Shown here piece by piece: positions 18,001 through 51,000 of a stretch of DNA of 64,000 nucleotides. Each line of letters opens with the position of its first letter. The stretch's first letter is position 1. Source of the DNA: an uncultured Gammaproteobacteria bacterium (GTDB lineage Bacteria > Pseudomonadota > Gammaproteobacteria > JABDGN01); assembly GCA_963975985.1 (NCBI GenBank), contig CAXBIY010000001.1, positions 307,870 to 371,869 on the forward strand. The letters run 5' to 3'. Position numbers: made by a program.

Positions 18001-21000
18001 CTTGCACCTTTGCTACCAGCGTAGAAACGAGTATCTAGGGCCCGTCCCTAGTGCCATGCCCGCAGCGGGGATCCTTCCCCTTTTTGGAACAGCCTACCCC
18101 GCTGCATGGCATGTCTTAATGACAAGGTGTAGCCTTTAGGCTACATTAGAGCTATAATAACATGAAGCGAATCAAGTATTACAAAGCCAGTAATGTAAAA
18201 TCGCCATTTTTGAAATGGTTAAATAAGATTAAAGATATAAAGGTGCAGACAGTTCTAATGCGCAATATCAGAAAATTATGTCTGGATGTTGGTGATACCA
18301 AGCGGATTGCCAAAGGAATTTTAGAGTTGCGTATACATATTGGACCAGGTTATCGAGTGTATTATATGGAATATGAAGAAGAAATTATAATTTTATTATT
18401 GGGTGGGGATAAATCATCACAGCAAAAAGATATTGATACTGCAAAGCAATATTATGGTGATATTTTGGAGAAAGGGTATGAGTAAAAAAATCGACGAAAT
18501 CACTGAAGATTACGACCAGTGGCTATATGGAAAATTAAAAAATAAGCGTTATGCCCTCGCCTATCTTGAAGGTGCTTTAAAGGAATATGAAATCGATAAT
18601 AATACCGAAGCCTTTCTTCTCGCTTTTCGCGATATTGCAAAAGCGCAAGGTGGGATAGCTGAATTAGCGAAAAAAACTAATTTAAATCGAGAAAGTTTGT
18701 ATAAAACATTATCGAGCAAAGGTAATCCTAAATTAGAAACCTTGATTACTTTATTAAAGGGCTTGGGTTTTCGTTTTTCACTTAAACTGGCATAAATCAC
18801 GTTAAGCATATGGAAAATATTCCATCGGAGATAACAATGAAAATCGGTATATTAGGTGCTATGGTAGAAGAAATCGGGTTGTTGCAAGCCGATATGCAGC
18901 AAGTTGAAAAACAAACTTAGTTAGAACAATTCACTATTCACAAAGCAAAGGCCTATGTTGGCATGATTGCCAGTGGCGATAAGGTTGAAAAACCTTATAT
19001 TATTATTCGCACCATTTCCGATAAAGCTGATCATTCGGCCCACATCGATTTCATAGCCTTCATAAAAGACATTGCCAGCCATTATTCGCGTGGTATTATT
19101 AAACAGTTATTAAAGTAGGGTGGATAAAAGTTCGGCTGAAAGCCGGACATATCCACCAGGGCTCTATCGTTAACCACTGTTGGTGGATATATCCGCACTT
19201 CGTGCGAATTTTTATCCACCCTACAAAGGAAGCAAAATGAAAAAATTTCCCATCTACCAAATTGATGCGTTTACTAGCGAAGTATTTAAAGGAAATCCTG
19301 CTGCAGTGGTAATCTTAGACCAGTGGCTGCCAGATGAAACCTTATTAAATATTGCCGCAGAAAATAATTTAGCGGAAACAGCCTTTATTATTAAAAATGA
19401 TCCTGTGAATCGCTTACGTTGGTTTACGCCCACGTGTGAAATACCCTTGTGTGGCCACGGTACATTAGCCACAGCTTATGTGCTGTTTAATGAATTGAAT
19501 TATGAGGGTGAGAAAATCACATTTACTAGTTTAAGTGGCTCGCTTAGTGTAAGTAAACAAGATGAAATGTTCATTCTAGATTTCCCAAAGCGCGATTATG
19601 AGCCTACCACAGTGCCAAAAGCGATTATTGATACAATAGGTTTTACTCCGCAACAAGTGATCTCGGACCATCGAGAATATGTTTTGATCTATGATGATGA
19701 AACCATCATTGAGCGCATAGACCCAGACTTCAGCATACTAAAACACCATGATGCGGTTGTTGTAACCGCCGCATCTAAGCAATATGATTTTATTTCACGA
19801 AACTTTCACCCTTCAGCTGGCATCGATGAAGACCCGGTTACTGGCAGTTCACATTGTTTACTCGCCAATTATTGGTCGAAACAACTTGGCAAAACTAAAC
19901 TCCACGCTTACCAAGCATCGGAACGTGGTGGTGAAATGACATGTGAGATTGTTGGTGATAGGGTAAAATTGATAGGAAATGCGGTGAAATTTTTAGAAGG
20001 GTTTTGTTGGTTGGAATAAATAATAATAATTTTCAACAAGTGTAGTGAGTGACAATCATAAGGCAAGTAAAACTATTGTCGGAAATTTCGAAAATTTGTT
20101 GGGTTATTTTCAAAGTTAGATCGAAATGGATTAATGTCGATACCACCACGTCGGGTAAAACGAGCATAGACCGAAAGTTTTTCTGGTGTACATTCGCGCA
20201 TAATATCGGTGAAGATGCGTTCGGCACAGGGCTCGTGGAATTCGTTGTGGTTGCGAAAAGAAATTAAATATTTTAATAAGCTCGCATGGTCAATAGCGTT
20301 GCCACTGTAGCGAATCATGACGCTAGCCCAATCGGGTTGGCGGGTGATTAAGCAGTTGGATTTTAATAGATGTGAGTGTAGGGTTTCTTCAACTGTATGC
20401 TTAGCTGTTTGCAGCAAGCTGGCATCATGTTCATAAATATCAATGCTAACGTCGATATCATCGATGCAGCGGCCGGGCAATTCATTGAAACGCTGCTGCT
20501 GAAAATCGGAGGGTGGAATTAATTTAACGGTAACAGTACTTTGAGTTGCACGTGATAAATCAGCTTGAATTAAGTTTTTGACTGCATCAGCACTGGTAAA
20601 TTTTGTTTGGTTAAATGAATTCAAATAAAGTTTTAACGATTTTGATTCGGTAATATTTTCACTCTCTGCCGGCACATGAAATTTCCCCACCACTATTTGG
20701 GGTTTGCCTTTGCTATTTAGCCAAGAAATTTCATACGCATTCCAAATATCCACACCGTGAAAAGGGAGCTTACTTGTCACGCCCATTGCATCACGATTCT
20801 CTTGTCGTGAAATAGGAAACAACAACGACGCATCGTACTGTTTGTTATAAGTGGAGGTTTTACCGAGTTGAGAATTCTGTAGCACGATTGTCTCCAATGG
20901 ATATTCAAAAAACCCGGCATAGAGCCGGGCTTTGTTGTATAGGATGTGTTACCACAAATTATAATGTTCGTTCTTTTGCGTTTTACCTTTGTCTACCATG

Positions 21001-48000: not shown

Positions 48001-51000
48001 GTTTGAAGTCTTCTTTGCTGAAATTAGATTGCAAGGCTGATTCATCGGTGATGGATTCACTAGCATGAACCAAGGGGATTTGTGTTGAATGCTGAAGTTG
48101 TGTTCGTAACTCCGTAATACGTTGCTGTGCCTGGTCATAGGCATTGTCATCAGCAGGATCAACATTGATAATGATGGATATTTGATTGGCTAAATTGTCA
48201 TAGGCGACGACTTCATCCGATACCATTAATAAAATATCAGGTGTGCCTAACGGATGTGGGTTGGGGCAATCGGCTAAACGTTTTTCAGCATAACGAATCG
48301 TGTCGTAACTAAAATAACCCACTAAGCCACCGCTAAACCGTGGCAAGCCATCTAATGTAACGGCTTTGTATTGTGCTTGGTAGTCCGCTAGCCATTGTAA
48401 AGGCTCAGCCACATCAAAGGATTCGATAATATTGTCTTGTTCACTGATTTCAACGGTGTTACCAAACACGCGGATAATCTTTTTGCATGGTAAGCCAATA
48501 AAAGAATAACGCGCCCATTTTTCACCACCTTGAACCGATTCTAATAAATAGGTGTAAGGCTGATCGGCGGCTAATTTGTAATAGACGCTTAAGGGGTTGT
48601 CGAGATCGGCTAGTGTTGAAAAAACAACAGGGATGCGGTTGTAACCTTGTTCAGCGTATTGTTGAAATTGTTGTGCTTGCATGATTGGGCTCGAGTTTAT
48701 TCAACGGAAGCTAGTTCATCACGCATATCCGCAATCGTTTGTGCGTAGTCATCGCTACCAAAAATGGCAGAGCCTGCCACAAACGTATCAGCGCCGGCTT
48801 CGGCAATGGCCGCAATGTTTTGAATGCCGACACCGCCATCAACTTCAAGGCGAATATCCAGATCATTCTCATCGATGATTTGACGAATGTCATGCAATTT
48901 TTCTAACGCGCTAGGGAGAAAGCTTTGCCCCCCAAAACCGGGATTAACCGACATCACCATAATGACATCCAGTTTATCGAGCACATAATCTAAATGGCTG
49001 ATAGGAGTGGCAGGGTTGAAGACCAAGCCTGCTTGGCAGCCATGATCATGAATGAGCTGTAAAGTGCGATCAACATGTTTCGACGCTTCAGGATGGAAGG
49101 TAATGATGTTGGCCCCTGCTTCAGCAAAAGCCGGAATAATTTCATCAACCGGTTCAATCATCAAATGCACATCCAAGGGAGCTTCAATGCCATACTCACG
49201 TAAGGCTTTTACCACCACAGGGCCAAAGGTTAAGTTAGGTACGTAGTGATTATCCATTACATCGATATGAATCCAATCGGCACCGGCTTCTAATACTTGC
49301 GAGACTTCCTCACCTAAACGAGCAAAATCGGCAGATAAGATTGATGGGGCTATGATGAAATCAGACATGGTTGGGCCTTGGTTGGTTTTGTTTCATTATA
49401 GTGGAGGGTGGATAAAAGGCCAAGTAAAGCTTGGGCATATCGATAGGTAAAACATGAAAAGTGGATGGTTTCTTGTAGGGTGGATAAAAGGACGTGCGGA
49501 GCACGGCCATATTCACTCTACATTAGAATCAGGGATTTAAATTTTTAATTAGATCATAGGCCTTCTGAATTTGTTGCGTCTTTTCAGTGGCCACTTTGAT
49601 CATATCTTCAGGTAATCCTTTCGATACCAATTTATCTGGGTGATTTTCACTCATGAGCTTACGATACGCACGTTTGACTTCATTGGCCGGTGTTTGAGGC
49701 GTGACGCCAAGGATGCGATAAGCTTCATCTAACGTTAAGCCAGTACTGGGACGGTATTGCTGTTGTGAAGAGGATTGGCCGCCGGTATAAGATTGGCGTG
49801 CTTGGCCATACATCATGGCTTCAATGTGAGCAAAATCGATAGGGGGTAAATTTAAATCACGCGCGATAGACTGGAGTAACTGTTGTTTTTGTCGGCTGGG
49901 TCGACCATCTGCAAAGGCTGCTTGCACTTGCATGTCGAGAAACATTTTTAATAAATATTGAAATCGACACGTGTGATGCAAATTTTGCAAGCACGCATGC
50001 AATTCAAAGTCCGTATGTTTACCAAAGTTGAATTGTTCGATAGCACGGCGTTTACCATTTTCATCCAAACCCATGCGCTGCATGATGGCGCGTGCCATTT
50101 GAATTTCATTTTCGCTAACCCGCCCATCCGATTTTGCGATATGCCCCATGACGGCAAATGTGCTATTAAAAAAGGTTTGTTTAGTTTTGCCTAGATTACC
50201 AACTTGTAAAGCGCCTTTTAAACCCCGATCAAAGATATGGCCGATAAACACACCAATCACTGCACCAATCGGTCCGAGAATGAGTGCGCCACAAATACCA
50301 CCAATAATTTTGCCAAGGAAATTCATTGTTACTGTACACATTAAGAAAGAATGTAACATTATACATTATCCGCTGAAAAAGCTATACTCCCGATATGATA
50401 CGTTGGATTTACAGTTTAATTTTCTACATGGCCGTGCCTTTTATCTTGCTACGTTTATTGCTGCGTTCAAGGCGTATTCCTGCGTATCGTCAACGTTGGC
50501 ACGAGCGTTTTGCACGTTTTGACATTGAATCAAAATGGCAGCATGGACTATGGGTCCATACCGTGTCTTTAGGTGAAATTGTGGCGGCAACACCATTAAT
50601 TAAAGCCATTCAAAAGCGATACCCTGATTTACCCATTACCATCACCACCATGACGATTACTGGTTCTGAGCGTGTGCGAGGCACCTTTGGTAATGAAGTT
50701 TTTCACGTTTATGTACCTTATGACTTGCCGACTGTCGTGAGCCGATTTTTAAATAAAGTTAAGCCCAAAGCGGTGATGATTTTTGAAACTGAATTATGGC
50801 CTAATATCATGTACGCTTGCAAAAAACGTCATCTGCCTGTCATGTTAGCCAATGCTCGACTATCAGAACGTTCAGCGAAAGGTTACCGTCATATCTCACA
50901 TACCATGAAAAAAATGTTATCAGCAATCACATTATTAGGTGCGCATGCTCATGCTGATGCGGAACGCTTTGTGCAGCTAGGGTTAGACAACGATAAAGTA

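Follow-up and report, generated by a model that had tools for sequence, protein, structure and literature searches.

The hairpin repeats dispersed through the 64-kb window (the whole stretch of DNA that we analysed) very probably belong to the GTAG super-family of repetitive extragenic palindromes (REPs); some units stand singly, others form inverted doublets resembling REPINs or BIMEs. They occur in excess, have a common anatomy, covary in their stems, are biased in placement and orientation, and have a cognate RAYT (REP-associated tyrosine transposase) gene that is bracketed by units in the same metagenome assembly. For this uncultured marine gammaproteobacterium, REP/REPIN with a cognate RAYT replaces the label of mariner-type MITE under which the repeats had been predicted.

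Repeat units in the window

The original prediction of a dispersed, non-autonomous, hairpin-forming repeat family at seven loci was borne out. The 16-mer of this family (family 1; GTAGGGTGGATAAAAG) matched the window 10 times at three or fewer mismatches, against 0.35 matches expected, and none of 100 shuffles reached 10. A covariance model (CM) trained on related units found exactly 10 significant REP units in the window, spread over the seven reported loci (Table 1), and no REP unit beyond 19115-49521; a truncated unit at 44113 (+) comes in addition to these. All 10 are intergenic or overlap a stop codon only, and related contigs hold a further 84 units. The sharing of internal modules between copies, also predicted, is present: the unit at 43540-43582 (-) is identical in sequence to that at 19115-19157, and the inner stem of the unit at 43472-43515 matches that of a degenerate unit immediately ahead of the RAYT start in contig L141.

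Table 1. Repeat features of the window and the RAYT gene of contig L141, with CM scores and adjoining genes
Feature	Coordinates	Strand	CM unit start	Evidence and context
REP unit, left half of head-out dimer	19115-19157	+	19115+	70.0 bits; the mtnN pseudogene remnant stops at TAG 19116-19118
Asymmetric dimer spacer, 24 nt, AGGGCTCTATCGTTAACCACTGTT	19158-19181			Sequence; spacer type recurrent in many dimers of related contigs
REP unit, right half of dimer	19182-19224	-	19224-	70.1 bits; ends 12 nt ahead of the ATG of a PhzF-like gene
Degenerate REP unit, tail ATGCCCACC	22549-22591	+	22549+	41.9 bits; antisense to neighbouring minus-strand genes
Spacer and hairpin of a second, CGTC-tagged family (D7)	22592-22650	-		GTAG at 22650-22647 precedes hairpin; TAG 22649-22647, within the element, is the redoxin gene stop
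Single REP unit, sense	25622-25664	+	25622+	63 bits; coxA stop 7 nt before, ctaG start 40 nt after
Headless partial unit or hairpin	25667-25692			After the unit at 25622-25664
Single REP unit, sense	30566-30608	+	30566+	62 bits; 1 nt past ctaB stop (TAA-A-GTAG)
Small extra hairpin	30612-30627			After the unit at 30566-30608
REP unit, left half of dimer	43472-43515	+	43472+	51.7 bits; 1 nt past coq7 stop
REP unit, right half of dimer	43540-43582	-	43582-	70 bits; ends 16 nt ahead of the ATG of a MAPEG-family gene
Truncated REP unit (D2), GTAG fused straight to CGCGGATATATCCACC	44113-44133	+		TAG 44114-44116 is the MAPEG-family gene stop
REP unit	44158-44198	-	44198-	37.5 bits; TAG 44197-44195 is the trpC stop
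Degenerate REP unit, head GGAG, first of head-to-tail pair	49403-49445	+	49403+	34.3 bits; antisense to rpe and djlA-like gene
REP unit ending CTAC, hence palindromic including tag	49475-49521	+	49475+	51.7 bits; CTAC end 7 nt past the stop of the minus-strand djlA-like gene
RAYT, 172 aa	L141:363-881	-		Pfam Y1_Tnp

Unit anatomy, dimers and covariation

Read on the GTAG strand, the basic repeat is an imperfect hairpin of 43-44 nt, a little above the customary REP length of 20-40 nt. It comprises, in order, the GTAG tag, an 8-bp lower stem (GGTGGATA/TATCCACC), an asymmetric internal loop (AAA vs A), an 8-bp upper stem and a loop, the upper stem being capped by C(GNA)G or C(GNNA)G. The tag heads nine of the 10 window units (the remaining one has GGAG) and also the truncated unit at 44113; alignment A1 shows no variation at G1, T2 and A3, and has G4 in at least 90%. 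Triloops were GNA in 43 of 48 cases and tetraloops GNNA in 22 of 24; of the 72 loops, 64 are closed by a C-G pair. Such C-G-closed loops are a hallmark of very stable DNA mini-hairpins, unlike the GNRA loops of RNA.

The ~110-bp copies taken in the original prediction for the full-length element are head-out dimers, in which two different units are inverted around a 24-nt spacer; many such dimers occur in the related contigs, with outer ends ~110 nt apart. Their inverted termini, described as perfect over 16 bp, are perfect over 15 nt, position 16 being A or G and covarying with its partner on the other side of the inner stem, T or C. Folding gave -30.8 kcal/mol (z = -8.6) for the dimer at 19115-19224, -31.6 kcal/mol (z = -9.4) for that at 43472-43582, and z = -3.6 to -3.8 for single units.

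Over both 8-bp helices together, 95.5% of cells are paired; with slid partners the figure is 32-43%. The lower stem is near-invariant and 98% paired; the upper stem is hypervariable yet fully compensated, with double changes at all 8 pairs and 93% of cells paired (vs the same 32-43% slid). The copies that covary in this way are paralogous and occupy unrelated loci. The two strands differ: a T-G wobble is conserved at pair 18-32, 54 of 62 units fold better on the GTAG strand than on its complement, and the CM scores the GTAG strand at 70 bits vs 11-15 bits for the complement.

A cognate RAYT and its probable action

RAYT is normally a single-copy gene, and the one that we associate with this family is flanked by eight family-1 units (5 + 3). 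In the related contigs it is the only gene enclosed by a '+' head and, 0.9-2 kb away, a '-' head. The protein scored 186.8 bits against the NCBIfam equivalog REP_Tyr_transpos (NF047646, cutoff 80) and 31.6 bits, below the cutoff of 55, against the IS200 model NF033573. It matched TnpA-REP of PDB 4ER8 with E = 5.6e-45, its LPDHIHC (HUH) and YINYNSVKHG (Tyr) motifs aligning with the E. coli motifs of that structure, and shares 48% identity with RayT of E. coli K-12. The REPtron with family-1 units lies on a 3.2-kb contig and was also seen in a second Tara assembly. An identical RAYT protein is encoded on scaffold_50833 of the Tara assembly ENA ERZ2783041, which also contains the window's scaffold_821; from this co-occurrence in one assembly, on separate contigs of equal G+C (0.42-0.44) with identical REP heads, the RAYT probably belongs to the same genome as the window. 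The closest relative of the host has its own RAYT and a sibling REP.

By analogy with E. coli, the units would be copied in trans by the RAYT (TnpA-REP, a Y1 HUH enzyme), this RAYT being their presumptive mobiliser. The E. coli enzyme binds the folded single-stranded GTAG strand via tag, lower stem and bulge; GTAG, stem and bulge are required, and the loop has a structural role only (PMC8266576). These RAYT/SELEX rules fit the pattern here, of an invariant tag, lower stem and bulge and an upper stem that drifts with compensation. Conservation and strand asymmetry agree with, and so indirectly support, a RAYT that would bind and cleave the folded REP strand, and not its complement, in dependence on GTAG and bulge.

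Placement, orientation and possible RNA role

All seven loci adjoin a stop codon, as had been stated; in four cases, however, the stop lies not ahead of the element but inside it, the TAG of GTAG serving as the stop codon of four ORFs (mtnN remnant, MAPEG, trpC and redoxin). It had also been claimed that each copy begins 0-8 nt past the upstream stop, which does not apply at 22549-22650 and 49403-49521: there the heads of family 1 are antisense to flanking minus-strand genes, and the stop adjoins the opposite end of the cluster. The strong bias for sites just 3' of stops, inside and between operons, was confirmed, the gap to the stop being smaller than the gap to the next start in 29 of 34 elements (medians 11.5 vs 62 nt). 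At the coxA-ctaG junction the REP copy is absent from the orthologous site of the nearest relatives. Between close strains we found no filled/empty polymorphism, L110, L191 and L192 being 100% identical to the window.

Single units lie sense in 17 cases and antisense in two; within the window, the sense-orientation rule is broken at two loci (22549 and 49403-49521). The GTAG head is often lengthened to TAAAGTAG, giving stops in two reading frames. At 44113-44198 the two units together occupy the entire gap between two convergent genes and provide the stop codons of both. The RBS of the PhzF-like gene (AAGGAAG) lies 2 nt past the end of the element at 19115-19224. Placement and stop-codon features of this kind are already described for GTAG REPs, which are reported to follow ORFs on their downstream side, to supply them with TAG stops and to pair up as head-head dimers (PMC3733652). 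We suspect that copies survive where they are least harmful, just 3' of stop codons.

Intra-operon singles would sit head-first in the mRNA and have no U-tract, so that they could act only as a barrier to 3' exonucleases. The opposite face of the unit is a hairpin followed by YTTTTAT, resembling an intrinsic terminator, and selection would therefore act against singles in antisense; dimers are terminator-like both ways. Any RNA-level role of the units is a putative one. It is quite improbable that the family is instead primarily a structure, in RNA or DNA, that serves the host in cis (as mRNA 3' stabiliser, terminator or operon punctuation) and was spread by selection for that function, with an incidental RAYT association. 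Such a structure would be in keeping with a hairpin backed by covariation, with the G-U wobble and stronger folding on the sense strand, with the 17:2 orientation and tight proximity to stops, and with the terminator-like antisense face and dimers. The copies, however, are paralogous, lie at unrelated loci and are missing from the orthologous junctions of relatives; they cluster round a RAYT gene exactly as in the REPtrons of E. coli and Gallionella; their C-G-closed GNA/GNNA loops point to DNA mini-hairpins and not to RNA GNRA loops; and an Rfam search of the window gave no match at the gathering threshold. The lack of an Rfam match, the unrelated loci and the empty coxA-ctaG site in relatives likewise argue against a conserved RNA gene or riboswitch supported by covariation, which the original prediction had named as the contrary outcome. 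Since an RNA role is compatible with RAYT-driven spread, the cis-regulatory reading is a complement more than an alternative to REPs with a RAYT.

Co-option of this REP family as polar operon punctuation we regard as unlikely. This reading starts from the stop codons that the GTAG head supplies and from the sense orientation of singles, in which the U-tract is missing. Were it true, 1) orientation and copy number (one or two units) would encode read-through vs termination at each gene junction, 2) the C(GNA)G-capped hairpin with its T-run would end antisense or convergent transcription, dimers terminating in both directions, and 3) the variable but always-compensated upper stem would reflect selection on site-specific hairpin strength.

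Decay or mariner-type transposition as explanations

The units are diverse, with 62 distinct sequences among 76 and the commonest in 6 copies only, and those at 22549, 44113 and 49403 are degenerate or truncated, as would befit relics of an old REP population, now drifting and inactive, whose RAYT was lost or is that of another organism. We hold such decay to be highly improbable, because stem pairing is maintained at 93-98% despite the diversity, identical copies lie at separate loci (19115 and 43582), and the RAYT present in the window's assembly is intact, HUH and Tyr motifs included.

The TA said to flank every copy proved to be the centre of GTAG/CTAC: the G ahead of it (in nine of the 10 units) and the C behind it are conserved equally with TA, so the motif is the tetranucleotide. 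Single units have one such 'terminus' and no second TA, their other end reading ...CCACC, then A (+1 = A in 69 of 76), then G, A or T (+2 = G in 44 of 76); no dinucleotide is fixed on the 5' side. It is true that the 110-nt copies are bounded by inverted ends and read ...TA-GGGTGG...CCACCC-TA..., but derivation from an IS630/Tc1-mariner MITE (13-16 bp terminal inverted repeats, TA insertion and duplication, mobilisation by a DDE transposase) is extremely improbable given these flanks, the assembly of copies with fixed ends but hypervariable interiors from hairpin units, the finding in the window (gene tables and searches) of no DDE transposase, no IS630-family gene with matching termini and no transposase of any kind, and the fact that the sole gene bracketed by outward-facing termini in ~370 kb of related DNA is the Y1/HUH RAYT.

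Significance

Assignment to REPs accounts for assembly breaks and for unusual 'TAG' gene ends in MAGs of this sort. The window family is a clean natural example of the recognition rules established in vitro for E. coli TnpA-REP, with fixed tag, lower stem and bulge and a free but paired upper stem. Current understanding of REPs is unchanged; this is a new family within a known, ordinary kind of bacterial repeat.

Comparison with known systems

Like IS630/Tc1-mariner MITEs, these repeats are small and non-coding, with inverted ends and folding into a long hairpin; unlike them, they have no TA duplication and no DDE transposase, and consist of modular hairpin units with one-ended singles. Like the window family, the GTAG REP/QMITE2 of Coxiella burnetii, compared by description only, consists of GTAG-tagged palindromes, in full-size and small versions, that lie in intergenic DNA and 3' UTRs and in some cases overlap stop codons; its 7-11 nt direct repeats and its use as a target by IS1111 were not seen in the window family (PMC5896051). 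The window is not Coxiella, the best matches of its CoxA being at most 83%.

In the REPIN-RAYT system of Pseudomonas fluorescens SBW25 (Bertels and Rainey; bioRxiv 10.1101/2021.07.10.451892), as here (~110 nt, 24-nt conserved spacer), two inverted REPs form a recurring long hairpin accompanied by a non-jumping RAYT. Unlike SBW25 REPINs, singles here are at least as frequent as doublets, and none of the copies seen stands out as a dominant master sequence. In GTAG-3 (Di Nocera et al. 2013, PMC3733652), as here, two or three non-complementary nucleotides separate stem from loop, the inner loop regions are self-complementary, the spacers of head-head dimers are conserved, the repeats follow ORFs and provide TAG stops from GTAG, and CGTC-tagged repeats occur alongside; assignment to GTAG-3 is by this described architecture and not by a match of consensus sequences.

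The E. coli REP/BIME system with RayT (TnpA-REP, YafM, a group 2 RAYT, PDB 4ER8) likewise carries GTAG on the 5' side of an imperfect palindrome, forms hetero-dimers of inverted units around a spacer, and has a RAYT gene bracketed by repeats. The common skeleton of its REPtron is GTAGG-NNGGATAA...CATCCNNC-A (also ATCCNNC-A), with an A-rich unpaired bulge between the stems. The lower stem is GGTGGAT here vs GCCGGAT or GACGGAT there, our upper stem is longer (8 bp) and far more variable, with GNA/GNNA loops, and the host is an uncultured marine gammaproteobacterium of 42% G+C. Because the E. coli REP scored 12.9 bits (E = 0.25, not significant) against the CM of the window family, we consider the latter a distinct family of E. 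coli architecture and not the E. coli family.

REPs from Gallionella MAGs and high-GC freshwater metagenomes (L091, L152, L129, L073, L075 and L087) differ in unit length (30-37 nt), in a short and GC-rich upper stem, in dimer spacers of 5-10 nt and in their betaproteobacterial hosts. Their tag and lower stem (GTAGGGTGGATAAA...TATCCACC) are nonetheless identical to those here, and their repeat-flanked RAYTs are 53-57% identical to the family-1 RAYT, a conjunction that bears on REP-RAYT co-evolution.

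Repeat units and their structure

The object that recurs at the seven loci is a unit of 43–44 nt rather than the 110-bp element of the original prediction, whose 'full-length' copies at 19115–19224 and 43472–43582 each consist of two different units in inverted arrangement, GTAG tags outward, around a 24-nt spacer; the inverted termini of these copies, given as perfect over 16 nt, are perfect over 15. A family-1 unit comprises, in order, the GTAG tag, GGTGGATA, AAA, an 8-bp stem with a 3–4 nt loop, an unpaired A and TATCCACC. Allowing three or fewer mismatches, the window contains 10 occurrences of the 16-mer GTAGGGTGGATAAAAG, where shuffled sequence gives an expectation of 0.35. 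Trained on 39 distinct units, a covariance model detects exactly ten significant units in the window; the GTAG strand scores 34–70 bits and the complement just 11–15 bits. None falls outside 19115–49521, showing that the original list of seven loci is complete. No convincing match to WATCAANNNNTTR was seen when the dimer spacer was inspected by eye for an IHF-site-like motif, and a literature search with the family-1 head sequence returned unrelated primer matches only.

The two-helix structure is 95.5% paired across the 39-sequence alignment, compared with 32–43% when the partners are slid by 1–3 columns. In the upper helix each of the eight pairs shows two-sided changes, the lower helix is nearly invariant, and the commonest state of pair 18–32 is a T-G wobble (29 of the 39 sequences). 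The 76 units of the window and related contigs contain 62 distinct inner segments, nearly all of which form the same 8-bp stem. Triloops are GNA in 43 of 48 cases and tetraloops GNNA in 22 of 24, with a C-G closing pair in 64 of 72; both C(GNA)G and C(GNNA)G belong to the classic DNA mini-hairpin loops of very high stability. Under RNA energy parameters, 54 of 62 units fold better as the GTAG strand than as the complement, and dimers taken as single-stranded DNA fold at about −31 kcal/mol (z about −9).

The repeats had been read as MITEs bounded by a TA target duplication and mobilized by an IS630/mariner mechanism. Their description as non-autonomous, hairpin-forming repeats stands, but the duplication and the mechanism do not: TA lies within GTAG/CTAC and is not a flank, and the reading fails because conservation of the preceding G and, in dimers, of the C that follows TA at the far end equals that of TA itself; because the tails of single units lack TA (69 of the 76 have A at +1, and +2 is mostly G); and because neither of the forms recurring in the G-poor four bases 5′ of GTAG, YAAA (18/76) and TCTT (12/76), is a duplication, the YAAA forms often including the TAA of the upstream gene. 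CT at −3/−2 of GTAG, found in 14 of 76 units compared with about 5% in the control, is suggestive only as a cleavage dinucleotide 5′ of the tag. Strain comparison gave no insertion boundaries: L110, L191 and L192, three further assemblies of the region, are 100% identical to the window.

A cognate transposase and the host

Neither searches nor gene tables revealed a transposase of any kind in the window, and tblastn found no REP-associated tyrosine transposase (RAYT) there. Scanning metagenome contigs for GTAGGGTGGATAAAA-N(12-24)-TATCCACC gave 78 loci, 37 of them from one Tara assembly and with G+C of 0.38–0.45, like the window. One of these, the 2.9-kb contig L141, has a 172-aa ORF between family-1 units. 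The ORF matches Pfam Y1_Tnp. Its score for the NCBIfam equivalog 'REP-associated tyrosine transposase' is 186.8 bits, above the cutoff of 80, and it does not pass the IS200 model. It aligns at its HUH and Tyr motifs with the E. coli TnpA-REP structure 4ER8 (E = 5.6e-45) and shares 48% identity with E. coli K-12 RayT; by these matches it is a RAYT. An identical protein is encoded on scaffold_50833 of ENA ERZ2783041, the assembly that holds the window's scaffold, and there the gene is bracketed by family-1 units, five to one side and three to the opposite side. In about 370 kb of related DNA, this RAYT is the sole gene between outward-facing family-1 termini. The repeats thus form a GTAG REP/REPIN family whose cognate RAYT is group-2-like; this RAYT probably shares the window's genome, and the units may still be mobile and may act at the RNA level.

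The window's CoxA is encoded on scaffold_821 of this Tara Oceans assembly, and this scaffold matches the window at 100% identity over 21.6 kb. The best CoxA homologues, from uncultured and Oceanospirillales-like bacteria, reach 83% identity or less, and the named ones (76–78%) come from Oceanospirillales-like or Legionellales MAGs. An identity with QMITE2 of Coxiella burnetii, suspected from G+C and the GTAG head, was rejected because of this scaffold assignment and these low identities; QMITE2 (PMC5896051) is the same kind of element as family-1, but of a different identity.

Placement and orientation at gene ends

The strong preference for positions just behind stop codons, seen originally in the window, holds. 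Among 34 elements between co-directional genes (window and related contigs), 29 lie closer to the stop than to the next start, the median gap being 11.5 nt to the stop and 62 nt to the start; taking the first start codon as the start is a crude call, whose bias runs against this result. Two distances from the stop stand out: −4 (TAG inside GTAG, 7 cases) and +1 (TAA-N-GTAG, 6 cases). Four ORFs end xxG-TAG by using the tag, namely the mtnN remnant, a MAPEG-family gene, trpC and a redoxin gene, the GTAG of the last preceding a unit of a different, CGTC-tagged family; at 44113–44198 each of the two convergent genes takes its stop from one of the tags, and the dimer makes up the whole intergenic region. 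Such placement is already reported for GTAG REPs, which lie downstream of ORFs, donate TAG and form head-head dimers (PMC3733652). At the orthologous coxA-ctaG junction the nearest relative has an overlapping TAATG and the next a 10-nt spacer, so that the unit at 25622 represents a gain specific to this lineage. Elsewhere, on a related contig (L130, 2900–9300), at least five Sel1-repeat protein genes stand in tandem, each with one sense family-1 unit 9–17 nt after its stop, as if gene and REP had been co-duplicated.

Single units between co-directional genes are sense in 17 cases and antisense in 2. In the window, two loci have family-1 heads that run antisense to the genes beside them. Both unit orientations are present in the window while cumulative GC skew rises throughout, so orientation tracks transcription, not replication. 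A possible explanation is a terminator-like antisense face: a simple terminator scan flags this face of almost every unit, where the upper hairpin is followed by YTTTTATCC. Since that arrangement lies on the antisense face, an operon's own transcript would meet, in a sense single, a hairpin without a U-tract; an antisense single would show a terminator-like signal, and a dimer would show one in both directions. Selection would then act against antisense singles within operons, and this would agree with what is known of REPs as mRNA stabilisers.

Other features of the window

A second dispersed hairpin family, CCGTCAT[CCCGCGG]CTTGACC[GCGGG]ATCCAG, has compensated stem variants and one inverted pair, and resembles the CGTC-tagged REP super-family of Di Nocera 2013.

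Table. Positions of additional repeats and genes in the window
Feature	Position	Strand	Remarks
Truncated family-1 unit	44113		
Second hairpin family	22612-22642, 53822-53852, 60602-60632, 63720-63810		
Hybrid dimer	22592-22650		second-family hairpin with family-1 unit
Short extra hairpin directly 3′ of single REP unit	25667-25692		looks like headless partial unit (ATAAAATTGCCGCGAAGCGGC)
Short extra hairpin directly 3′ of single REP unit	30612-30627		GCTGCTACGAAGCAGC
Type VI secretion cluster	137-13339		TssM C-terminus, TagF, TssA, VipA/VipB, Hcp, TssE, TssF, TssG, VgrG-DUF2515 fusion; without REP units; G+C up to 0.50 around 8-12 kb
Gp49/HigB-like toxin and HI1420-type antitoxin	18162-18795		
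mtnN (MTA/SAH nucleosidase) pseudogene, two fragments	18810-19118		after Gp49/HigB-like pair; stop codon of last fragment is TAG of REP tag
BrnT-like toxin/CopG-like antitoxin pair	46556-47126	-	within trp operon, between trpE and trpG
7-nt tandem repeat runs (GGATTRA)	7273-7336, 26244-26293		3′ end of TssE-like gene; end of ctaG
Two adjacent paralogous ORFs	55538-57898, 58028-60439		786 and 803 aa; DNA stretches 70-85% identical; without Pfam match

Comparison with known REP systems

A scan of genome contigs with the bare 15-mer placed six Gallionella loci among the matches listed. The tag and lower stem of family-1 (GGTGGATA/TATCCACC) are found in Betaproteobacteria, comprising Gallionella MAGs (L091, L003, L073, L075 and L087), L152, L129 and about 40 high-GC metagenome loci; in the Gallionella MAGs and high-GC freshwater contigs the upper stem is shorter and GC-rich, the REPs again form head-out dimers, and the flanking RAYTs are 53–57% identical. 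The host's closest relative, L193, with a CoxA identity of 83%, carries a RAYT of its own (52% identical) flanked by a sibling REP, GTAGGGTGGGCAAAG...TGCCCACC, whose lower stem (GGTGGGCA) differs from that of family-1. With the lower stem shared by Betaproteobacteria but not by the nearest relative, whose RAYT is only 52% identical, horizontal transfer or RAYT paralogy comes into consideration.

For E. coli TnpA-REP, SELEX in vitro found GTAG, stem and bulge to be required and the loop region to be only structural, and the substrate of the enzyme is the REP strand in single-stranded form rather than the complementary strand (PMC8266576); the conservation pattern of family-1 fits the SELEX rules. 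The E. coli K-12 REPtron, a RAYT gene bracketed by REPs, has a skeleton in common with family-1, GTAGG-NNGGATAA...CATCCNNC-A. The E. coli REP reaches 12.9 bits with the family-1 model, not a significant match, and family-1 is therefore a separate family of the same architecture.
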